A stretch of DNA of 64,000 nucleotides from Candidatus Iainarchaeum sp. (GCA_018304425.1 JAGVWE010000005.1:153534-217533), one strand, 5' to 3'; positions 17,901 to 31,403 are shown, counted from the first letter of the stretch. Translations and numbers: made by a program. The notes: generated by a model from the sequence alone, not told the origin.

Positions 17901-18725
17901 TCATTCCCCCAGCAGGCCGTTCAGCTTCGAAAAGGGGCCGATGAATTCCAGGCCGTTGACGTCCAGCAAGGCCTTGATCCCGGGAAAGTAGAAGCTGAGC
18001 CAGAGCTTCTTCCCCTCCCTTGCGTGGGTGGAAAGCAGGGACACGAGGCCCGGCATTTCCTTGAGTTCCACGAGGAGGTTGTTGGCCTTCGGCTTTGAGG
18101 CCGTGACGGTGGACAGTTGTTCCAGGAGCAGGGCGTCATCCGATTCAACGGTTATTTTTTCCGCGTTCAACTTGTTGGCGGCCTCGACCAGCAGGCCCAA
18201 CGTCACCGGGTTGAGGTCCATCCGCCTGGAATCGTTGAAGTCAAAGGCCTTTAAGGCATTGATTTGCTCGGAAAACACTTTGGAGACCTTGCTGAGCTGC
18301 TCGACCTGGGTGAGGATGCGCTGGTTGATGCGGGCGAGTTCCGAGACCGTGAACTCCGTGGAGCCCTTGGCTGCCTTCAACAGGTCGGCATCCGTCTTCG
18401 AGCGCTCGATGAGGGCGTGCAGCAGTTCGACGATGGGGTTGATGCCCAGGTGCGGGTTCTTGGCGCGCACCAACTGGTTCAAGCGGATGAGGAGCTTGGA
18501 CTTCATCTCGGAACTGATTTCCGTGGACGCCTTGTCGGTGATGAAGAGATTGCTGCCCTGCTTGGTGACCAAGCCGAAGGCGCGGAGGTCTTTGAGGGTG
18601 CGGGACAAGGCTGCGCGCGCGGAGTTCAGCGTGGAATAGTTGGCCGCGATTTTGTTGAGCAGGGCATGGTATTCCATGCCCTGGTTCTGCTTGATGATTA
18701 ACAGGACGGCGTTGCGCGCAGTCAT
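17901..18725 (-). CDS. Hypothetical protein with N-terminal winged-helix-like domain
   Basis: LSRTLKDLRAFGLVTK..LFITDKA wing pattern; host-like codon usage; coupled to the GT gene. Confidence 0.6.
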   Translation of the reverse strand: MTARNAVLLIIKQNQGMEYHALLNKIAANYSTLNSARAALSRTLKDLRAFGLVTKQGSNLFITDKASTEISSEMKSKLLIRLNQLVRAKNPHLGINPIVELLHALIERSKTDADLLKAAKGSTEFTVSELARINQRILTQVEQLSKVSKVFSEQINALKAFDFNDSRRMDLNPVTLGLLVEAANKLNAEKITVESDDALLLEQLSTVTASKPKANNLLVELKEMPGLVSLLSTHAREGKKLWLSFYFPGIKALLDVNGLEFIGPFSKLNGLLGE

Positions 18726-19298: not shown

Positions 19299-19523
19299 AT
19301 GGTGCTGGAAGCAGAAGTCAAGCTCAAAAAGTGGGGGAGTTCCATTGGAATGGTCCTGCCGAAGAAGGCCGTGGAAAAGGAGGGGCTCAAGGAGGGCGAG
19401 ACCGTACGGGTGATGATCTTCAAGAAGAGAAACCCGTGGATTGAAAGCTTCGGCACCATGAAATTCTCCAAATCAACCGAGGAAATACTCAAAGAAGTGG
19501 ATGAAGAGGGATGGGATGAGTGA
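19299..19523 (+). CDS. AbrB/MazE-fold antitoxin (VapB)
   Basis: KKWGSSIGMVLPK..GLKEGETV. Confidence 0.88.
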   Translation: MVLEAEVKLKKWGSSIGMVLPKKAVEKEGLKEGETVRVMIFKKRNPWIESFGTMKFSKSTEEILKEVDEEGWDE

Positions 19524-19878
19524 AGGCCGGTATTTCTATGACACGAACGCCATTTGCGAGATACTCAAGGGAAACCCGGCCTATAAGGAGCGTTCGAAAG
19601 CCGGTGGTTCGACCACCCTTTTCAATCTCGCTGAATTGAATTATTCGTTAAAACGCCAGGGCAAGGAGCGAGCTGACGAACAAACAACGGACTATGCTTC
19701 CTGTCTCGTCGATGTCACGGTTGCCGATGTCTTAGAAGCCATGAGCCTCCGCGTCATGCGCCGCGCGTTTTCCGTCCCGGATGCCATCGGCTACGTGGTC
19801 GCCAAGCGGTTAGGCCTCAAGTTCCTCACCGGCGACAAGGAATTCCAGGGCATGGACAACGTGGAATTCGTCAAGTGA
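19516..19878 (+). CDS. PIN-domain toxin (VapC)
   Basis: YDTNA, LAEL, S.PDAIGY, LTGDKEF; overlaps the antitoxin. Confidence 0.9.
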   Translation: MSEGRYFYDTNAICEILKGNPAYKERSKAGGSTTLFNLAELNYSLKRQGKERADEQTTDYASCLVDVTVADVLEAMSLRVMRRAFSVPDAIGYVVAKRLGLKFLTGDKEFQGMDNVEFVK

Positions 19879-21150: not shown

Positions 21151-21267
21151 GCGGCTCGCACCGTTTGCAAGCCCCTGTGCGCGGCTGAAAGGCCTTGGAA
21201 AAGGGTTTATTAATCCCTTCAGCGTTAATCCATTGAATTCTGTTTAGGCAAGGGGACTGGGTTGGAA

Positions 21268-24200
21268 ATGATTCGCATCGCGCGCCTCCGTTTGAAGAAC
21301 TTCAAGAGCTTCCGCAAGGCCAACATCCCCTTTCACGAGGGCTTCACCTGCATTGCGGGCAGCAATGCCAGCGGCAAGTGCGTGGTGGGGGACACGAAAG
21401 TCTACCTGTCGGACGGCTCCGCCAAACGCATCGACGAGTTGGTTGAAGCGGCGCTCGCGAAGTCGCAGCAGCCAGAGAAAATGGAGGACGGGTGCTTCAC
21501 CCTCGCCAACCCGGAAAACGTCGAGGTCGCATGCCTTAACACGTGCTCGCTGAAAATGGAGCCCATGCCCGTGCGCTCGTTCATCAAGCGCACGAGCCCC
21601 GCCACGCTCCTGAAACTCACGACGAAAAGCGGGCGCAGCGTCACGGCCACGGCCTACCACCCGGTCTACTCGCTGCAGGACGGAAAGCTCAAGGCATTGC
21701 AGGCCGGCGAACTGAAGGCCGGCACGCGCATCGCGGTGCCGCGGCGCCTCGTCAAGGAAACGCCGGACGGTTTTTTCCGGGAGCTGATTGAAGCGGTCGC
21801 CGAGGAAGACAACCTGTATGCGCCGAATTACGGAGAGTACCGCGAGATTGCGCGCAAGTGGCTGAAGGAAAACGGCCTGACGCAGAAAGCGGGGGCGGCG
21901 CGCACCGGCATCCCTTACCTGGCCTTGAAGTCGTTGCTGGACGGCCAGGCCATGAAGCTGGCATACTTGTTCAGGTTGCTGAAGGCCGCAGGCCACGAAG
22001 CAAAAGAAATAGCCTGCCTGGTTCCGATGGCAAAGGGCAAGACCGGCGCGAAGGAAGTGGTCATTCCCTGGCATAACTCCAAGAAATTCGCGCGGCTGCT
22101 GGGGTACTTGTTCGCGGAAGGCCGGAACTCGACGAACAACCAGGTGTGGTTCACCAACGGCACGCCAGAAATCGTGGAAGACTATGCGAGCCTGTGCCGG
22201 CAGACCCTGGGCATCGAACCATTCGTGAAAAAATACAAGCCGAACGCCTGGGACGCCATCCTGTTCTCGAACCCCGCCAGCCTGTTCCTGGACAAGTTCG
22301 GGTTATGCAGGGGCAAACGCACGAAGCACAAGCGGTTGAACGAATTTTTCATCAGGCACGCGTCGCCTGAAGAGCTGGCGGAGTTCCTGAACGGCTTGTA
22401 TTGCGGCGACGGTTACGTGACTGGCAACACCGTTGAGCTGACCAGCGCGAGCCGGGAGCTGGCTTTAAGCGTGCAACGCCTCCTGCTGATGCTGGACATT
22501 CCGGGGCGCCTCAAGCAGCGCACCAAGCATGCGACCAACACGGGCCGGAGCGGCATCTATTGGAGTGTGAGCGTATTCGGCCAGGAAAACCTCCGGAAAT
22601 TCAACGAGAAAATCCGGCTCGTGCACGAGGCGAAGCGACGAACGCTGGAAAGCGCGGTTGCCGAGCCGCGACGGATCCATTCCAATGTGGACCTCATTCC
22701 GGGGTTGCAAGGCGTTATCCGAGAAACCTGCCAGGTGCTGGGTTCGCACCCCATGCGCAAAACCGACCGCTATCCGAAGCTCCAAGCCTATGCGAGGAAC
22801 CTGTGCGAGGTCAGCCGGCACGGCCTGCAGGAGGTCATCGAAAGGGAGTTCGCTCCCTTGGCGGTCGCGTCCCCGGAGAAGCTGGCCGGCCTCCGGCTGC
22901 TGGCGGAATCGGATGTTCTGTGGGACGAAATCGTGTCCATTGAAGCCTTGGAATCGGCGGAAGAATGGGTGTACGACCTGTGCATCGACGAGCACCACAA
23001 CTTCGTGGCCGACAATGTGTTCGTGCACAACAGCAACATCCTGGACTCCATCCTGTTCGCCTTGGGCGCCACGAGCCTCAAGATGCTGCGGGCCTCGCGG
23101 TTGACCGACCTGGTGAACCATGACGCGGACGAGGACTATGCGAAGGCCGAGCTGGTGCTGAATGAGAACGGCCAGGAAATCGAGGTCAAGCGGCTGATTG
23201 ACAAGAAGGGGCGCGGCGCGGTCAAGCTGAACGGGAAGAAGAAGAGCCTGGATGAGGTCACGGCCTACCTCGAGGAGCTGGGCCTACGGGCCAGCGGCCA
23301 CAACATCGTTGTCCAGGGAGACATAACCAAAATCATCGAGATGAACCCCAAGGAGCGGCGACAAATCATTGACCGGGTCGCGGGCCTCCAGGAGTTCGAG
23401 GAAAAAAAGGAGGAAGCGCTCAAGAAGCTGGAGAAGGTCGAGCAGAAGGTGCGCGAGGTCGGCATCGTCTTGAAGGAACGCGAGCTGTACCTGGGGGAAC
23501 TGGAAAAAGAGCGGGCGCTGGCCCTGAAGTTCGAGCAACTCAACACCGAGTTGAAGCAGTCGAAGGCCACGATTTTGGCGCTGGAGATAAAGAAGGTCAA
23601 GGCCGAGTTGGCGAGCGCGGAAAAAAAGCGGGAGAGCCTGCAGAAGCAGATTGACCGCCTGGCCAGGGAAAAAGAGGGGTTGGCCGAGGAGGGCCGCAAG
23701 GCAGGGGAAAAATTGGAGGAACTGACCCGGAAACTCTTGGAGGCCAGCCAGAAGACCTATTCCGGCATCGGCCGCGAAATCGAGGAAAAAAAGGCGGAAG
23801 CCCGCGTCCTCCGCGAGCGACTGGCGGGTTTGAACCAGCGCCTGCAACAGGATTCCCTGGCCCTCCAGCAACGGGTGGACCAGGCCAAGAACCTGGCCAA
23901 GACCGCGGGCGAGCGGGAGCGGGAACTGCACACCGCGCGGGACAAGCTTCAGGGACTCAGCGAGTCGCTCAAGCAATTGCAGGGCCTGATTGAAGCCAAG
24001 TCCAAGACGGTTTCCGCCAAGAGCGGGGCGTTGAAGGCCAAGGAAGGCCAGATCGAGGGGTTGAAGGCGAGGGCCTTGGAGCACAAGGAGGCCTTGATGG
24101 GCACGCACGGCGAAATCGCGTGGGCCGAGAACCTCCTGGCCTCGCGGGAGCACTCCATTGAGGCCGTGGAAAAGGAGAACGCGGCGTTGCACAAGAAGCT

Positions 24201-25959
24201 GGAGGAGAAGGGCGAGCTGTTGAAGCGGCTCCGGGAACTCGAGAAACGCAAGGACCACGAGCAGGCCTTGTTGAAGAAGGAAGCCGAGCTGGAGAAGGCC
24301 TTGGAGGACATCAGTTACTCGAAGAACCGCATCGAGGGCCTCCACGAGGAGATGGCGGCCCTGCAGAAGGCGAAAACCTCTTGCCCGGTCTGCGAGAACG
24401 AGTTGACCGGGGAGCGGAAGGACAAGTTGCGCGCGAAAAAGGAGCGCGAGAAGGACGAGTTCGAGGCCCGCATCCAGGAAAAGCACGCCTTGCGCGTGGA
24501 AATCGCGCGCGAGAAGGACGAGTTGCGGCACACCCTCAACGAGATAATCAAGTTGCGCGCCCAGCTCGAGGACGTGGACGAGCTGAAGAAGAAGCTGGAG
24601 GACAACCGCAAGCGCGTGCTGGAGTTGACCGCGGAATTGAAGAAGGTGGACTTGCCGGGCCTCAAGGCCAGGGAAAAAGAGCAGCAGCACGAGCTCGAGC
24701 GCGTGGAACGCGAGTGCTCGCTGGCCGTGAAGGGCCTGGAGAACATGCAGGAATCCGCGGAGAACCTGGCGTTCAACCAGTTGATGGAGAAATTCAACGA
24801 AGCCAACGCCGAGCACGCGGAGCGGCAGGAGCGGTTGCTCAAGCTGGAAAGCGAGTTGAACAATGCCAGGGAGGCCAGGGAGCGGCTGGGCGGCGAGGCC
24901 AAGGCCCTGGAAGGCCAGGTAAAGGGGTTCGGCGAGCAGCGGATGGAGAACGAGCGCGCCCTCCAAGGCATTGAAGGGGAACTGGCGGAGAAGCAGCTGG
25001 AAATGGAGAAGTCCCGGCAGGAAACCGGGTTGATGGAGCAGGAAAAGCAGCGGGTGTCCGCGCGGGTGCACGCGGTGGCCGGCGAGAAAGGCGAACTAGA
25101 GGGAAGGATTTCCGGGCTGGAACGGGAACTCAACGAGTTCAATCTCGAGCAGTCGCGGAACGAGGTCCGAATCGTCGACCTGGAAGAGGAATTCAAGCCC
25201 TTCGCGTCCATCGAATTGCTGAAGGAAGCCGAGCTGCCCGCCCTGCGGAGCCGCCTGCCGAAAATCGAGGCCGAACTCGACAAAATCGGGGCGGTCAACA
25301 TGAAGGCCATCCAGAGCTATGAAGACTACAAGAAGGAAGTCGAGGACGTGCGTGGCAAGGCGGCCGTGCTCGAAGGGGAGCGGAAGGCCGTGCTGGAAAT
25401 GATTGACAAGATCGAGGTCAAGAAACTCAACGTGTTCATGGAGTGCTTCAACAAGGTCAGCTATTTCTTCGGCGAACTCTACAAGAGCGTCTTCCAGAAG
25501 GAGGGAAGGCTGGGCTTGTCCGATGCCGTGAACCCCTTGGCAGGCGGCCTCCTGATCCAGGCCAAGTACAAGGAAGACAAGATGAAGAGCCTGGACGAGA
25601 TGTCGGGCGGGGAAAAGTCGTTGACGGCGTTGGCGTTCCTGTTCGCCATCCAGCAATACCAGCCCTCGCCCTTCTATATCTTTGACGAGATTGACGCGGC
25701 CCTGGACAAGGAGAACTCGGTGCGTGTGGGCCTGATGATCCAGCAGGTGGCCCGGAAAAGCCAGGTCATCAGCATCACGCACAATGATGCAGTCATCAAG
25801 CTGGCCGACCAGCTCATCGGCGTGGCCCTGAACAAGCAGAAGAGCAGCGTGGTGGGGTTGAAGCTCAAGGGCGTGCTTTCGGCCGGTGGGGTCTTGGGCG
25901 GCGGGGAGAAACCCGACGAGGTCAGCGACGAGGAAGGCGCGGAAGAGCTCTCCGCGTAG
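21268..25959 (+). CDS. smc: Smc-family ATPase (intein-containing) with a central CPVC zinc hook
   Basis: NFKSF, GSNASGK/SNILD, LRASRLTDLV, Q-loop VVQGDI, GAVNMKAI, MSGGEKS, FYIFDEIDAALD, ITH. Confidence 0.9.
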   Translation: MIRIARLRLKNFKSFRKANIPFHEGFTCIAGSNASGKCVVGDTKVYLSDGSAKRIDELVEAALAKSQQPEKMEDGCFTLANPENVEVACLNTCSLKMEPMPVRSFIKRTSPATLLKLTTKSGRSVTATAYHPVYSLQDGKLKALQAGELKAGTRIAVPRRLVKETPDGFFRELIEAVAEEDNLYAPNYGEYREIARKWLKENGLTQKAGAARTGIPYLALKSLLDGQAMKLAYLFRLLKAAGHEAKEIACLVPMAKGKTGAKEVVIPWHNSKKFARLLGYLFAEGRNSTNNQVWFTNGTPEIVEDYASLCRQTLGIEPFVKKYKPNAWDAILFSNPASLFLDKFGLCRGKRTKHKRLNEFFIRHASPEELAEFLNGLYCGDGYVTGNTVELTSASRELALSVQRLLLMLDIPGRLKQRTKHATNTGRSGIYWSVSVFGQENLRKFNEKIRLVHEAKRRTLESAVAEPRRIHSNVDLIPGLQGVIRETCQVLGSHPMRKTDRYPKLQAYARNLCEVSRHGLQEVIEREFAPLAVASPEKLAGLRLLAESDVLWDEIVSIEALESAEEWVYDLCIDEHHNFVADNVFVHNSNILDSILFALGATSLKMLRASRLTDLVNHDADEDYAKAELVLNENGQEIEVKRLIDKKGRGAVKLNGKKKSLDEVTAYLEELGLRASGHNIVVQGDITKIIEMNPKERRQIIDRVAGLQEFEEKKEEALKKLEKVEQKVREVGIVLKERELYLGELEKERALALKFEQLNTELKQSKATILALEIKKVKAELASAEKKRESLQKQIDRLAREKEGLAEEGRKAGEKLEELTRKLLEASQKTYSGIGREIEEKKAEARVLRERLAGLNQRLQQDSLALQQRVDQAKNLAKTAGERERELHTARDKLQGLSESLKQLQGLIEAKSKTVSAKSGALKAKEGQIEGLKARALEHKEALMGTHGEIAWAENLLASREHSIEAVEKENAALHKKLEEKGELLKRLRELEKRKDHEQALLKKEAELEKALEDISYSKNRIEGLHEEMAALQKAKTSCPVCENELTGERKDKLRAKKEREKDEFEARIQEKHALRVEIAREKDELRHTLNEIIKLRAQLEDVDELKKKLEDNRKRVLELTAELKKVDLPGLKAREKEQQHELERVERECSLAVKGLENMQESAENLAFNQLMEKFNEANAEHAERQERLLKLESELNNAREARERLGGEAKALEGQVKGFGEQRMENERALQGIEGELAEKQLEMEKSRQETGLMEQEKQRVSARVHAVAGEKGELEGRISGLERELNEFNLEQSRNEVRIVDLEEEFKPFASIELLKEAELPALRSRLPKIEAELDKIGAVNMKAIQSYEDYKKEVEDVRGKAAVLEGERKAVLEMIDKIEVKKLNVFMECFNKVSYFFGELYKSVFQKEGRLGLSDAVNPLAGGLLIQAKYKEDKMKSLDEMSGGEKSLTALAFLFAIQQYQPSPFYIFDEIDAALDKENSVRVGLMIQQVARKSQVISITHNDAVIKLADQLIGVALNKQKSSVVGLKLKGVLSAGGVLGGGEKPDEVSDEEGAEELSA
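21379..23031 (+). mobile_element. Intein (551 aa) with LAGLIDADG homing endonuclease in the Smc Walker A
   Basis: Starts CVVGDT, block B TATAYHP, LLGYLFAEG and FLNGLYCGDG, ends VYDL..HNFVAD.VFVHN followed by Ser. Confidence 0.95.
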
Positions 25960-26049: not shown

Positions 26050-28098
26050 TTGGAATTGATTTTGCTCGTGTTCGCAATCAGCGTGCTATCCGTCGGGTTC
26101 GCGGGGTATCTCGCCAATTACGTCCTGAAGAAGGACACGGGGACCCCGAAAATGCGGGAAATCAGCAACGCCATCATGGAGGGCGCGAACGCCTTCCTCA
26201 AAAGGCAGTACAAGACCATCGCGGTCATCTGCGTGGTGCTTGCGGTCCTGATCATGGGCGCCTATGCCTTGACCGGCAAGGTCGACTTCGGCCTCAAGAC
26301 CGCGGTTGCCTTCGTGTTCGGGGCCTTTTGCTCCGCGCTGTCGGGTTACATCGGCATGTGGATTTCCATCCGCGCCAACATCCGCGCGGCCTCCGGCGCG
26401 CAGCGCAGCCTCAACGAGGCGTTGACCATTGCCTTGCGCGGCGGAGCGGTGTCCGGCATCATCATCGTGGCCTTGTCCTTGCTGGGCGTGAGCGCACTCT
26501 ATTACTTCTACGGGCTCTCCGCGCCCCTCACGGAAGTGCCTTTCCTGATCGTGGGCTTTGGATTTGGGGCCAGCTTCGTGGCCTTGTTCGCGCAACTCGG
26601 CGGCGGCATTTACACGAAAGCGGCTGACGTCGGCGCGGACCTGGTCGGAAAAGTCGAAGCCGGCATCCCGGAAGACGACCCCAGGAACCCCGCCGTCATC
26701 GCGGACCTCGTCGGAGACAACGTCGGCGACTGCGCGGGAAGGGGGGCCGACTTGTTTGAAAGCACGGCCGCCGAAAACATCGGGGCCATGATCCTTGGAG
26801 TGGCCTTGTTTCCCGTGTTCGGCGTGAACGGCATCGTGTTCCCCCTAGTGGCAAGGGCCTTCGGCTTGATCGCCTCCATTATCGGGATCATGGCCGTGAA
26901 GGCCAGGGAAGACGAGGACCCCATGAACGCCTTGAACCGCGGCTATCTGATTACCTCGGTGCTGGCCGCCATTGCCTTCTACATCGCCACCCAGTGGCTG
27001 TTGGGCAACATCCTGTTCTTCTACGCCGGCCTCGTAGGCATCCTGGCCAGCATTGCCTTCGTCTACATCACCATCTACTACACGGACCAAAAGTATGGGC
27101 CCGTTAAGTCGATTGCGGAGGCCTCGAAGACCGGGCACGCGACCAACATCATCGCGGGATTTGGGGTGGGACTCGAATGCGTGGCGGCACCGGTCATCGT
27201 CTTGAGCGCGGCCCTCATGGGCTCGTTCATGATTGGCGAGCTGTCCGGGTATGCGAACGGCGGCTTATACGGAACGGCCATCGCGACCATGGGCATGCTT
27301 TCAACGGCTGCCTTCGTCTTGGCCATGGACACTTTCGGCCCCATCACGGACAACGCCGGGGGAATCGTGGAGATGAGCAAGAGCCCGGAAAAAGTCCGGA
27401 AGATCACGGACCGGCTGGACGCGGTCGGCAACACCACCAAGGCCCTGACGAAGGGCTACGCGGTGGGCTCGGCCGGCCTCGCGGCGTTCCTGTTGTTCAC
27501 GGCCTACATGGATGAAGTCACGAAACTGGTGGGGCACCCCATGACGGTGAATCTCGCCAAAGTGGACGTGTTCGTGGGCGGGTTGCTGGGCGCCATGCTG
27601 GTGTTCCTGTTCAGCAGCTACGCCATCAAGGCCGTTGGAAAGACCGCGGGCAGCGTCATCGAGGAAGTCCGGAGGCAGTTCAGGGAAATCCCCGGCCTCA
27701 TGAAGGGAAAAGCCAAGCCCGACTACGCGAAATGCGTGGACATCTGCACCACGGCCGCCTTGAAGGAAATGGTGTTGCCAGGGCTTCTCGTGGTTTTCAT
27801 GACCCTGGCCGTAGGCTATGTCCTCAAAGCCGAGGCCGCGGCGGCTTTCCTGATGGTGGGAACCATGAGCGGAATCCTCATGGCCTTGCTGCTCAACACG
27901 GGTGGAGGCGCCTGGGACAACGCCAAGAAATACATTGAAACCGGTGCCTTTGGCGGCAAGGGAAGCGAAGCCCACAAGGCCGCCGTAACCGGGGACACGG
28001 TGGGGGATCCCTTCAAGGACACGGCAGGCCCGAGCCTGCACGTGTTAATCAAGCTCTTGGGAACCCTTACCCTGGTGCTCGCGCCCCTATTCATATAG
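26050..28098 (+). CDS. hppA: Membrane-bound H+-translocating pyrophosphatase, K+-independent type
   Basis: GGGIYTKAADVGADLVGKVEAGIPEDDPRNP, DNVGD, GNTTKA (Lys at the K+-dependence site), GDTVGDPFKD. Confidence 0.95.
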   Translation: MELILLVFAISVLSVGFAGYLANYVLKKDTGTPKMREISNAIMEGANAFLKRQYKTIAVICVVLAVLIMGAYALTGKVDFGLKTAVAFVFGAFCSALSGYIGMWISIRANIRAASGAQRSLNEALTIALRGGAVSGIIIVALSLLGVSALYYFYGLSAPLTEVPFLIVGFGFGASFVALFAQLGGGIYTKAADVGADLVGKVEAGIPEDDPRNPAVIADLVGDNVGDCAGRGADLFESTAAENIGAMILGVALFPVFGVNGIVFPLVARAFGLIASIIGIMAVKAREDEDPMNALNRGYLITSVLAAIAFYIATQWLLGNILFFYAGLVGILASIAFVYITIYYTDQKYGPVKSIAEASKTGHATNIIAGFGVGLECVAAPVIVLSAALMGSFMIGELSGYANGGLYGTAIATMGMLSTAAFVLAMDTFGPITDNAGGIVEMSKSPEKVRKITDRLDAVGNTTKALTKGYAVGSAGLAAFLLFTAYMDEVTKLVGHPMTVNLAKVDVFVGGLLGAMLVFLFSSYAIKAVGKTAGSVIEEVRRQFREIPGLMKGKAKPDYAKCVDICTTAALKEMVLPGLLVVFMTLAVGYVLKAEAAAAFLMVGTMSGILMALLLNTGGGAWDNAKKYIETGAFGGKGSEAHKAAVTGDTVGDPFKDTAGPSLHVLIKLLGTLTLVLAPLFI

Positions 28099-28173: not shown

Positions 28174-28944
28174 ATGGAAGAAAAACAACGCTCCTTGCTC
28201 GTCATCCTGATTGCGGCCCTGATTTTCGGGTTGGGCGCCTTCTCCGGCCCCACGTTCTTGGGCCTCTTGTCGGGCGAAAACGGTTTGGGGAGTCCGGGCC
28301 TGCCAGCCATCCAGTCCAGCGGGCAGACCGCCAGCATCAACATCGTGGCGGTAACCAGCCAGGGCGGCGGAGAGGTGTCCAAGGGAGTCGTCGAGTTGGT
28401 GCCGGGAAAGGGCCGCGTGTTAATCAACACCAACCCCTTTGTGGAACCGGACACGCAGTACTCGTTTGAGACCGCTGCCCAGGTAGCCGAAGGGGTCACG
28501 GGAAAGAGCTTGAAGAACGTGGACATCATTTTCACGGTCGAAGAATCCAAGGCCAAGCTGGTGGGCGGTCCCTCCGCAGGCGCGGCCTTCACCGTGGCCA
28601 CCATCGCGGCCGTGGAAGGCCGGAAAGTGCGGACCGATGCCGCCATCACGGGAACCATGGACAAGACCGGCCGGATCGGCCCCATCGGCGGCGTGCTCGA
28701 GAAAATGGTGGCCTTCGGCGAACTCGGCGGCAAACTCTTCCTGGTACCCAAGGGACAGGGCACCGTCAACTACCTGGTCGAGGAACCGGCCGGCGAGGGA
28801 AGGCAGGGGCCCTACCTCATCAAGCGGTTCCGCATGACGCAAAAGGCCCTGAAACTCGATGACTACGCCAAGGAACATTTCGAGGGAATGAAGGTAGTGG
28901 AAGTAGCGCACGTCGATGAAGCCCTGGCGCTGCTGGTACAATAG
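28174..28944 (+). CDS. Lon-type (S16) protease domain protein with N-terminal TM anchor, no ATPase
   Basis: GGPSAGAA (catalytic Ser), ITGT, IGGVLEK (catalytic Lys). Confidence 0.88.
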   Translation: MEEKQRSLLVILIAALIFGLGAFSGPTFLGLLSGENGLGSPGLPAIQSSGQTASINIVAVTSQGGGEVSKGVVELVPGKGRVLINTNPFVEPDTQYSFETAAQVAEGVTGKSLKNVDIIFTVEESKAKLVGGPSAGAAFTVATIAAVEGRKVRTDAAITGTMDKTGRIGPIGGVLEKMVAFGELGGKLFLVPKGQGTVNYLVEEPAGEGRQGPYLIKRFRMTQKALKLDDYAKEHFEGMKVVEVAHVDEALALLVQ

Positions 28945-28952
28945 GTCACGCG

Positions 28953-31403
28953 TTATTTTTTCGGCTCTGGCTTCTTTTTGGGGAGTGGCTTGACCTGCTT
29001 CCGCACCGAGCGCTGGACTTCCGACCAATCGCTTTCAACTCTCCCTACTGCCTGCCTTGCCTGGTCGGCTGCCACAACCTGGTCAATGGACTCCTCTTCG
29101 GCCAGGGCCTCGTACAACTGCTTGACCTTGGCATTGTATTCGTTGGTGAGTTTCCGGAAGTCCTCGGGGGAGATGCTGCGCTGCTTGAGGCTCCGCCGCA
29201 GGTCCCTGGACTTCATGTCAAACAACAAGAGGTCGGCGCGCAGCTTGTCCGAGGCAAAGGACTCCTCGGTCTTGGCTTCCCGCATGCGGAGCAGCCTCCG
29301 CAGTTGCTCGGACAACCGGCCTGACTCGGAGAGGTACTCGTCCTGGGAGAGCCTGCCCCTTGAAAGCCTTTCCTCGATTTCCCGCTGCTTTTGCTTGACC
29401 CCCTTTATTTCCTCGTACACCGAGTACTTGACGTCCGACTTCCGGGCTTTCAGTATCTTGAGCAGCAACACCAGCAGCACGATGAACAACACGGTGGGCA
29501 GGAGGAAAAACATGAGGTACCACTTGGTCTGATCGGTTTTCACGACCTCGTCGACGGCCGACTCCGAGCCCGTGTAGGGCTTGGCGGCGTTCTTTTCATA
29601 GAACTCGCTGACCTCTTCCACGGTCTTGAAGAGGCTCTCCGCCAACATGGCCAGGCTCAACCCGTTCTTCAGGGAGGAAAGGGCATCGCTTTTGTGGTTC
29701 AATTCCTTGTAGTAAACGGCTTCCTCCAGGTAATAGCGGGCGTGGTCGAGGTAGAGGTTGGCCCAGACATGCCGGTACTTGGAGTTGGCAATGGCCGAGC
29801 CCAAGTCGGCCAGTTTCTTGCGGAGGCTGGCCTCGAGCTTGACGGCATCGTCTTCCTTGGCCAGGCGCTTGCCCTCGATCAAGGCCTGCGCCGAGGCCGC
29901 GTTGAACAGGGCCGAGAGGCTCCAGCCACGCTTGAGTTCCTCCCGCGCCGAGGCAATCCGCCGCTCAATGTCCTCGATGTCCTCGCCCTTGAAAACCGTC
30001 AACCCGTTTTCCGCCTTCACCAGCAGGTCCTGCACGCGTTCCACGAAGTCAGGCAAGGGCTTCACCTTCTTCTGGGAGACCTTGGCCGCCTCGAAGAATT
30101 CCCGGGCCACCAGCAGCCAGGCCCTTGCGGACTCGAACTTGTAGAGGGCGTCGATGACGGCTTCCTTCTTGTCGGCCGAGCCCCCCGCCGAGACCACGAT
30201 GGTCTGGCCGCGGGACAACTCGTTCAAGGTGGTTTCGGCCCAGCCCAGCCGCTGCTGCGCGGAAACCATCCACTCCAGGCGGTCAACGGGCATGAACTCG
30301 GACAATTGCTTCTTCAAGTCCACGAGTTCCTGCTTGAGCAAATCCACTTTCAGGTCGAAAACCGTGGAATCGTCGGACAACAGCGAGGGGTTTTCCGCGA
30401 TGTCCTTGATGAGCATGGCGTTGACCCTTGCCAGGAATGCGAAGTTCGCGCTGCTGTACAGGTAGCCCTGGTCCAGGAGGATATCGGCCGTTTTGAGGTT
30501 CTTTTCCGCGTTGTTGAGGCTAGCCACCATCCGGCCGATGATGGAAACGTCTTCAATCAGGGTCGAGGAAAGCGCGTTCCGCGCCTCCTTCATGAGCTGC
30601 TTGGTTTCCTTCAAGTGCTTCCGGGTAATCTCCTTCATGGGCAGCAGTTCCTCTGCCGGCGTGGTCGGCTTTGGGACGAATTCGGGGGGCTCCTTTTCCG
30701 CCAACTCCTTGATGTCAATCTGCGATACATCCGTGTATGCGTACTTCAGGACGTCGTCCAGGGTGGAGGCCTCGACCACGTAGAGCCCCCACTTGTCCTT
30801 CGCGTACTGAATGAGGTTGATGGATTCGACGCCCGACTCGAGTTTCTCGATGCGGCGGGCTTCCCCCGAGGGAATCATGAACAGCTTCATGCCCCCGTCC
30901 TTCGCTGCCCTGGCCTTTTCGAAGACCCCTCCCACCGTGCCCACGATTCCGTCCTCGGAAATCGTGCCCGTGATGCTCACGTCTCGGGGAACGGTTTTTC
31001 CCTGCAGCAGGGCCGCCACCATGTAAGCCATGGCCGCTCCCGCCGAGGGCCCCTCGACCACGGCAGCGGTTGAACCAATCGAGAACTTGTAGTCGAACTT
31101 CTCCCATTCAGGAGAATACTTTTTTGCGGCCTGGACCGCGGCCTTTTCAGCGCTCTGCGTGGTCGTGCCCACCAGGGGGTTGACGGAAGTCCAGACCTTT
31201 CCGGTGCCGGGAACCAGTTCCAGGTAGAGGTCGGCTGAAAGCCCCTCGCCGTCGCCCGTGACGGCAAAAATCTTCATGGCCCCGCTGCGCACCTCGCCCT
31301 GGGACGCGGGCACGGCTTCCACGGCCCAGGCAAGCTGGCCAAGGCTGAACAGGAACAGGAAAACCAGTGCCACCTGCTTATTGAAAGCCAACCATTCACC
31401 CAA
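28953..31403 (-). CDS. Large S16 Lon-type protease: signal peptide, protease domain, helical region, TM, cytoplasmic tail
   Basis: EGPSAGAAM, ITGTI, VGGVFEKA; hydrophobic N-terminus; TM WYLMFFLLPTVLFIVLLVLLL. Confidence 0.85.
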   Translation of the reverse strand: MGEWLAFNKQVALVFLFLFSLGQLAWAVEAVPASQGEVRSGAMKIFAVTGDGEGLSADLYLELVPGTGKVWTSVNPLVGTTTQSAEKAAVQAAKKYSPEWEKFDYKFSIGSTAAVVEGPSAGAAMAYMVAALLQGKTVPRDVSITGTISEDGIVGTVGGVFEKARAAKDGGMKLFMIPSGEARRIEKLESGVESINLIQYAKDKWGLYVVEASTLDDVLKYAYTDVSQIDIKELAEKEPPEFVPKPTTPAEELLPMKEITRKHLKETKQLMKEARNALSSTLIEDVSIIGRMVASLNNAEKNLKTADILLDQGYLYSSANFAFLARVNAMLIKDIAENPSLLSDDSTVFDLKVDLLKQELVDLKKQLSEFMPVDRLEWMVSAQQRLGWAETTLNELSRGQTIVVSAGGSADKKEAVIDALYKFESARAWLLVAREFFEAAKVSQKKVKPLPDFVERVQDLLVKAENGLTVFKGEDIEDIERRIASAREELKRGWSLSALFNAASAQALIEGKRLAKEDDAVKLEASLRKKLADLGSAIANSKYRHVWANLYLDHARYYLEEAVYYKELNHKSDALSSLKNGLSLAMLAESLFKTVEEVSEFYEKNAAKPYTGSESAVDEVVKTDQTKWYLMFFLLPTVLFIVLLVLLLKILKARKSDVKYSVYEEIKGVKQKQREIEERLSRGRLSQDEYLSESGRLSEQLRRLLRMREAKTEESFASDKLRADLLLFDMKSRDLRRSLKQRSISPEDFRKLTNEYNAKVKQLYEALAEEESIDQVVAADQARQAVGRVESDWSEVQRSVRKQVKPLPKKKPEPKK

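Follow-up and report, generated by a model that had tools for sequence, protein, structure and literature searches.

The hinge is regarded as a defining part of an SMC protein, and models of DNA loading and loop extrusion differ on whether it serves as a gate, binds DNA or is a mere joint. A 64,000-nucleotide stretch of DNA from Candidatus Iainarchaeum sp. (the window) carries an smc gene (21268..25959, plus strand) whose product was described in an initial annotation as condensin-type heads joined by a Rad50-type zinc hook, with no hinge. Is this protein the condensin of the cell, and if so, what holds its two protomers together? We put at roughly three in four the probability that it is the cell's ordinary condensin, in which the hinge has been replaced by a Rad50 hook, and which would act as a Zn2+-joined homodimer, closed by ScpA, that folds the chromosome without hinge-DNA contacts.

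Results

An intein interrupts the smc gene at the Walker A motif

The gene encodes a precursor of 1563 residues that gives a 1012-residue protein after intein splicing, and its best family is TIGR02169. Translation might instead begin at an in-frame TTG at 21262. All features described here lie on the plus strand unless stated otherwise, and residues are numbered on the spliced protein except in the extein and intein. The N-extein (21268..21378, residues 1-37) ends in the Walker A motif GSNASGK, as read from the sequence and from the intein-free allele P0002. It is followed by a 551-residue intein (21379..23031, residues 38-588) that includes a LAGLIDADG homing endonuclease (Pfam Intein_splicing, E 1.5e-20; LAGLIDADG_3, E 9e-20). 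The intein has Cys...His-Asn/Ser ends and is inserted directly after the Walker A lysine. P0002, a natural allele without the intein, is 1012 residues long and 83.6% identical to the spliced window Smc; its equal length and ungapped alignment confirm the splice sites. The exteins likewise sum to 1012 residues, the approximate length given in the initial annotation. An intein at the same site occurs in 9 of the 120 best database homologues. The intein is a mobile passenger and lies outside the architecture proper.

Among relatives the Walker A intein is patchy (P0015, P0018, L124), with full forms of about 550 residues and mini forms of about 200, and one occurs in the hinged Smc of G213. Two Rad50-type proteins, P0242 and P0340, match intein-containing family models near the N-terminus. 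The Walker A motif itself (21358-21378) has Ala in place of the Gly of its relatives, and P0002 has the same residue.

The remainder of the N-terminal ATPase head half (23032..23325) extends to the Q-loop NIVVQGDI (23302-23325), and the C-terminal head half (25600..25785) contains the signature MSGGEKS, the Walker B/D-loop DEIDAALD (25684) and the H-loop (25768); both were assigned by sequence reading and PDB matches. All of the head motifs for which the two halves had been called canonical Smc were found where they had been placed.

A Rad50-type hook occupies the place of the hinge

With Pfam, no match to SMC_hinge (PF06470) was found at E ≤ 1 in the window protein, nor was there one anywhere in its genome (G000), and the spliced protein contains no match to the glycine-rich hinge pattern Gx6Gx3GG. 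Because the globular PF06470 hinge is absent, we file the protein as a variant Smc orthologue and not as a canonical member. In alignments to TIGR02169, residues 4-482 of P0002 corresponded to profile positions 2-490 and residues 499-982 of the spliced window protein to positions 676-1165, so that 16 residues stand for 185 profile positions. These residues include an isolated CPVC motif (24382..24393; C488 and C491), seen in the sequence, the alignment and the structural model. The initial annotation had placed it at about residue 490, close to the midpoint of the coiled coil. In an AlphaFold model of P0002 (102-row alignment, mean pLDDT 81, pTM 0.45) the helices stop at 483 and restart at 497, both Cys lie in the 484-496 turn, and no alpha/beta domain is placed between the arms; pLDDT is 75-89 in 10-residue blocks around the turn. 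The CxxC is therefore at the apex of the arm in this model, as in Rad50. The arms are also broken at 362-367/610-615 and, nearer the heads, at 225-232 (23593..23616) and 746-771 (25156..25233; numbering is the same in P0002 and the window protein). We take the head-proximal breaks to be the "joint".

Of the two Pfam searches proposed for the spliced protein, SMC_hinge thus gave nothing, and Rad50_zn_hook gave a weak match (E 5e-4, 20.2 bits) below the cut-off of 24.3. Profile comparisons were clearer. A profile built from 57 hook regions matched the Pyrococcus Rad50 hook (1L8D/6ZFF) in the PDB at E 8.7e-14, and the next, unrelated match reached only E 0.006. Compared with 30 Iainarchaeota Rad50s, the Smc hook scored an hhalign probability of 98% (E 1.4e-13). 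The similarity to Rad50 is in register and spans positions -35 to +48, approximately, relative to the first Cys (residues 453-536, 24277..24528), over which it lies above the mean of heptad-shifted controls; from -21 to +20 it clearly exceeds every such control, while at the edges it is marginal or not above them. On the basis of this similarity, the hhalign score and the 1L8D match, the segment 24277..24528 is probably a graft. Taken together, profiles and model indicate that the hook is homologous to the Rad50 hook and lies at the tip of the arm. By that homology it would bind zinc and dimerise the protein. A complex prediction with two copies of P0002 residues 400-580 and zinc, run without controls, scored 0.03 against a mark of 0.42.

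We also searched 1.84 billion proteins with the hook profile. The best 150 matches comprised 16 known hook-Smcs and 134 new proteins, namely 92 of Rad50 type, 13 Smcs of the Iainarchaeota type and 29 that were unclear; eight of the latter were scanned and seven proved to be Rad50/SbcC. The best named Rad50 matches came from Aenigmarchaeota, Micrarchaeia and others. In most genomes of the hook clade the profile finds two loci.

Tip types across the phylum

The C-extein matches 199 of the 215 genomes of the phylum Iainarchaeota and SMC_hinge matches 19, of which 2 are among the 196 genomes of the order that contains G000 and 17 are among the 19 genomes of other orders. An Smc sequence was obtained for 96 of the 196 order genomes: 67 carry the hook, 8 have neither hinge nor hook, 20 belong to families f2 and f9, and one (G155) is hinged. 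This set combines the 30 best matches with genomes picked to cover many families and unusual lengths, which over-represents odd forms. The two Cys, the proline between them and the spacing to the heads are kept across most families of the order (67 genomes, 21 families), and the arms of these relatives are only about 30-45% identical. Both Cys are invariant in 102 aligned long-form relatives, which were picked by length; the unbiased figure comes from the 120 best database homologues, in which a mid-protein CxxC is present in 105 (103 recognised by a filter, plus P0029 and P0049) and absent in 15, and PF06470 is present in none. Conservation of the motif in orthologues, which the initial annotation had proposed as a check, is thus borne out in both samples. 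Together with its place in the modelled turn, the invariance of the Cys pair speaks against a chance motif. An assembly chimera as the source of the hook-Smc is ruled out by the recurrence of the architecture in 67 genomes. As far as records show, all of the organisms concerned are uncultured.

In G134 a Pfam hinge match lies on a 1.6-kb contig while the Smc gene bears a hook, and contamination is the probable cause. PF06470 occurs in every one of the 120 proteins most similar to the Smc of the hinged sister G214, among whose names are Diapherotrites, Micrarchaeota, Nanoarchaeota, Altiarchaeales and Methermicoccaceae. Because the domain is universal among these homologues, the hinge is the ancestral state.

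The Smcs of families f9 (1078-1096 residues) and f2 (933-1008 residues; L102-L121) have no hook and contain a short middle domain that Pfam misses. Compared with hinges by hhalign, f9 gave E 0.084, which is not significant, and f2 gave no match; when the PDB was searched with a profile of the f9 middle region, chance coiled-coil matches alone came up. ESM Atlas feature matches for one protein per family (f2/f9) were 0.93 and 0.91, with 121 and 114 of 256 features shared. That this domain is probably an eroded hinge is a lead from the weak f9 alignment and these feature matches.

Two bacterial-type Smcs, L224:393-2582 (730 residues) and L260:4001-6124 (at least 708 residues), have neither hinge nor CxxC, and their best family is TIGR02168.

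The arm occurs in two lengths that differ by about 92 residues

The arm of the hook-Smcs is a long antiparallel coiled coil. Between the second Cys and the signature serine, 94 of 103 homologues have 402-406 residues, six have 313-314, two have 394 and one has 367. The distance from the Q-loop to the first Cys is 353-357 residues in long forms versus 261-263 in most short forms (exceptions are G176 with 349 and G175 with 251). The step between the two forms is thus 91-95 residues per strand, or about 92. In engineered B. subtilis Smc, viable arm lengths recur with a 91-residue period (Burmann et al. 2017, PMC5344682, available text), and that work also describes normal growth of cells whose Smc carried the P. 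furiosus Rad50 hook in place of the hinge, as well as the same bimodal arm-length pattern for this chimera. The agreement of the natural step with this period suggests that the arm, which has a permitted length, would still be mechanically constrained as in a functional Smc.

Short forms group with different long forms: G010 pairs with the long G009 (support 100/99) and P0051 with the long G176 (100/100). A single clade of short forms was rejected (three short rows, AU p 3e-77; all AU tests and finished careful trees used LG+G4, a model more prone to long-branch artefacts). By these trees, the short hook form, with arms one super-helical period below those of the long form, arose more than once.

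Three hinged Smcs with short arms were also seen (L201, L202 and L136; 830 and 816 residues; the hinge of G155 is at 374-478). They are again about one period below the usual length.

Some relatives have neither hinge nor hook

Hinge-less Smcs of 884-961 residues that lack the hook as well (P0037, P0047, P0053, P0086; L088, L098-L101, L138-L140) are scattered among hook-bearers in the trees. One of them, P0037 (924 residues), is the nearest relative of the window protein (support 98/96), and AlphaFold models it (20-row alignment, pLDDT 77) as an all-helical hairpin with a six-residue turn at 450-455. Since these forms nest among hook-bearers, the hook is not indispensable in the lineage. Monophyly of the hook-bearers alone was rejected (28 rows, AU p 3e-7), which means that there were either repeated losses of the hook or several gains; nine state changes are needed on a 46-row quick tree. 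The hook-bearing G023 joins the long-branched f2/f9 rows, and a clade of hook and hook-less rows without f2/f9 was not rejected (AU p 0.22). In some of the trees, two rows that lack the hook diverge close to the root of the clade. In pairwise alignments the deletion sites of the hook-less and short forms could not be located, as gaps were spread over the coiled coil. One gain of the hook followed by several losses fits best with the identical register of all long hooks; an order in which the hinge was lost first and hooks were gained later may also be considered. Genomes of the hook-less family f4 keep ScpA (9 of 9) and ScpB (8 of 8), and the complex presumably survives without a hook in those relatives.

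These relatives could point to a different role for the tip, in which the protein is a condensin Smc and the hook is an accessory. The hinge would have been lost first or been dispensable, packing of the arms near the tip together with ScpA would hold the dimer, and the CxxC would merely add stability or shape the turn, hence its loss from many relatives. The scatter of the hook-less forms through the clade and near its base, the plain hairpin predicted for P0037 and the retention of ScpA and ScpB in f4 all agree with an accessory hook, as do hinge-less Smcs without CxxC from marine Actinobacteria (PMC12153180, in the excerpts available). On the other hand, the Cys pair, the proline and the spacing to the heads have been conserved despite the divergence of the arms. 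In addition, two Cys per chain require a second chain to complete the zinc site, as is established for Rad50. We consider an accessory hook unlikely, though it is the leading alternative, and favor a hook that joins the dimer.

The genome encodes ScpA, ScpB and a separate Rad50

The genome G000 (1.48 Mb, phylum Iainarchaeota) encodes kleisin ScpA (C4:19423-20244) and kite ScpB (C4:33343-33951), the partners of prokaryotic Smc. The absence of scpA, scpB and mre11 from the neighborhood, as reported in the initial annotation, holds for the window, but the contig also carries scpA and scpB, at distances of about 155 and 141 kb. ScpA has PDB matches to its N-terminal domain and its C-terminal winged-helix (cap-binding) domain. 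Across the phylum ScpA is present in 194 of 215 genomes, and none of the 58 high-quality genomes lacks ScpA or ScpB. As scpA and scpB are unlinked to smc, it is this co-occurrence that suggests a complex with ScpAB. The window protein is the single Smc of G000, and a second, hinged Smc, for which a search had been suggested, was not found in this 92.6% complete assembly. No ParB_N domain was found in G000.

A separate Rad50 of 689 residues with its own CPVC is encoded at C1:270973-273042, and a weak SbcD-like match (C1:110551) is the only sign of Mre11. Rad50 matches were found in 129 of 132 phylum genomes. Iainarchaeota Rad50 lengths (L142-L171 and a phylum scan) bunch near 690, 790 and 900 residues.

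As the Smc and Rad50 hooks in these genomes are alike (the hhalign score of 98%), the shared hook might let Smc pair with Rad50, or shift Smc to a role in repair or DNA tethering. The arms, however, are unequal, with the first Cys at 488 in Smc versus about 350 in Rad50, and because of this great difference the heads would be unable to meet in a rod built from one chain of each. The genome retains ScpA and ScpB as well as an intact Rad50, and the Smc arm obeys the Smc length rule. Pairing with Rad50, or a repair role, is accordingly very improbable.

Several other genes lie close to smc. Directly downstream (26050-28098) is a gene for a membrane H+-pyrophosphatase (Pfam E 2e-262), and upstream (19299-19878) is a vapBC-like pair of a MazE/AbrB-like antitoxin and a PIN-domain protein. 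Two convergent genes, 28174-28944 (plus strand) and 28953-31403 (minus strand), each encode a Lon C-terminal (S16) protease domain preceded by a hydrophobic N-terminus, and neither has an ATPase match. The minus-strand gene at 17901-18725, beside that for ribosomal protein L44e, encodes a 274-residue protein with only a weak winged-helix match (HTH_Crp_2, E 0.0025).

The heads are those of Smc

A Pfam scan of the window protein gave SMC_N at E 4e-51. P0002 scored 539 bits with TIGR02169, versus 127 with the best Rad50 model and 117 with the ASRP model NF045487, the cut-off of which is 300. The TIGR02169 score is below the equivalog cut-off of 729 (the hinged sister G214 scores 865), and the missing hinge would account for this. 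The best PDB sequence match is Pyrococcus Smc 5XEI, a head with coiled coil and joint, at E 1e-89, versus E 1e-15 for the best Rad50, and the top ranks in Foldseek are condensin and Smc heads. In a head tree (FastTree, 118 rows) the protein is placed among hinged Smcs, and a stem of 3.3 changes per site separates it from the seven Rad50 rows; the head trees held no ClsN, Sph or Smc5/6-like rows, and ASRP is disfavored by the family scores. The head is thus a split ABC ATPase of Smc type and not of the Rad50 or ASRP type, and the protein is orthologous to hinged Smc. Family scores, the head tree and the hook profile together support the proposal that one chain joins condensin-type heads to a Rad50-type hook.

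There is next to no chance that the protein is instead a Rad50, an ASRP (coalescin/Sph) or another hook-bearing SMC-like paralogue: zinc hooks are typical of Rad50 and ASRP (PMC9389158, available text) and the hinge is missing, but this identity is refuted at the sequence level by family scores, PDB matches and trees, the protein stands where the single Smc of the genome is expected, a hinged orthologue occurs in sister orders, and a profile search found nothing in G000 above the ASRP cut-off.

A second lineage of hook-Smcs

Seven hinged Smcs from the group of a Nanoarchaeota-labelled protein served as seeds for a metagenome scan, and of the 80 loci recovered 25 were translated. Nine of these (L190-L193, L195-L199) encode Smcs of 952-960 residues with CPxC at 478-480 and no hinge. 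They form one clade (100/100) that stands beside the Nanoarchaeota-type hinged Smcs with weak support (88/59). Starred branches separate this clade from the Iainarchaeota forms, and a tree that joined the two was rejected (AU p 4e-4). The hook of the second lineage matches Rad50 better (93%) than it matches the hook of the Iainarchaeota Smcs (85%). On this sequence evidence, the second lineage near Nanoarchaeota is an independent origin. As the best 150 matches of the hook-profile search omitted it, that search is no proof that hook-Smcs are absent elsewhere.

A broader proposal is that the tip of the DPANN Smc is exchangeable: a hook would have been swapped in at least twice independently, the hinge eroded elsewhere and the hook dropped in several lineages, while the heads, ScpAB and the rule of about 92 residues were kept. 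We hold this tentatively, at somewhat short of an even chance.

Discussion

As a hook-joined condensin, the window protein would be the Smc subunit in a complex of composition Smc2-ScpA-ScpB2. In an ancestor that already belonged to the order of G000, a globular hinge of about 185 residues would have given way to a Rad50 arm tip with its CxxC, probably by recombination with a rad50 gene. Two protomers would join at the arm tips through one Zn2+ shared by four Cys, as in Rad50, and ScpA would bridge the heads. Driven by ATP, the arms would open and close and so move DNA and fold the chromosome as in other Smc-ScpAB complexes, and such a complex would have neither a DNA-binding surface nor a gate at a hinge.

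The protein resembles prokaryotic Smc (TIGR02169/TIGR02168; Pyrococcus 5XEI, 5XNS and 4I99) in its head motifs, joint-like breaks, near-canonical arm length, single copy and the presence of ScpA and ScpB in the genome. It differs in the lack of SMC_hinge, with 16 residues and a CPxC for about 185 profile positions, and in the length of hook-Smcs, which is about 990-1012 residues instead of 1115-1190. With archaeal Rad50 (PRK03918; 1L8D, 6ZFF) it has in common the CPxC hook and about 35-48 flanking residues in register, but its heads and the rest of its arms are Smc.

The ASRP proteins (ClsN, Sph; NF045487) are likewise archaeal SMC-superfamily ATPases with a zinc hook, and one of them, the coalescin ClsN, organises the chromosome (PMC9764264, available text). 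They form, however, a family of their own whose members are shorter and which the published tree sets apart from Smc (PMC9389158, in the same limited text), while the window-type Smc falls far below their cut-off and is accompanied by ScpAB. The hinge-less SMCs of marine Actinobacteria (Watson et al. 2025, PMC12153180, excerpts) share true Smc heads and the lack of a hinge, but are explicitly without CXXC and so resemble the hook-less relatives of about 925 residues and not the window protein.

The closest counterpart is the laboratory chimera Smc(Zh) of B. subtilis (PMC5344682, portions available), which likewise unites a Rad50 zinc hook with the heads and arms of Smc, and for which two arm lengths about 91 residues apart are permitted. 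The hook-Smc differs in being natural and fixed across most of an archaeal order, and some of its relatives are hook-less too. The reverse swap has been made with a MukB hinge in yeast Rad50 (PMC6969161, excerpt). In the literature searched, which included the accessible part of PMC11344861 and had most subscription papers and supplements outside its scope, no account of a zinc hook in a natural Smc was found; a term search of the partial texts of bioRxiv 2024.01.07.573240 and 2021.05.15.444277 gave no mention of hook or zinc. Published phylogenetic alignments may hold hook-Smc sequences without comment.

That the swap can work in B. subtilis was already known from the chimera (PMC5344682, portions available). 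The protein described here is the natural counterpart of that experiment, in a lineage of tiny archaea, and what is new is the hook at two quantised spacings, its probable repeated loss and a convergent second origin. Searches based on the hinge overlook the Smc of most Iainarchaeota, and rules based on the hook would misfile it as Rad50. The natural series of hinge, putatively eroded hinge, hook, short hook and bare hairpin offers small Smc-ScpAB complexes for direct tests of tip function. If the tip is indeed exchangeable, prokaryotic loop extrusion would work without a hinge gate or hinge-DNA contacts, and might even dispense with a dedicated dimerisation domain at the tip, so that arms and heads would be the whole motor.
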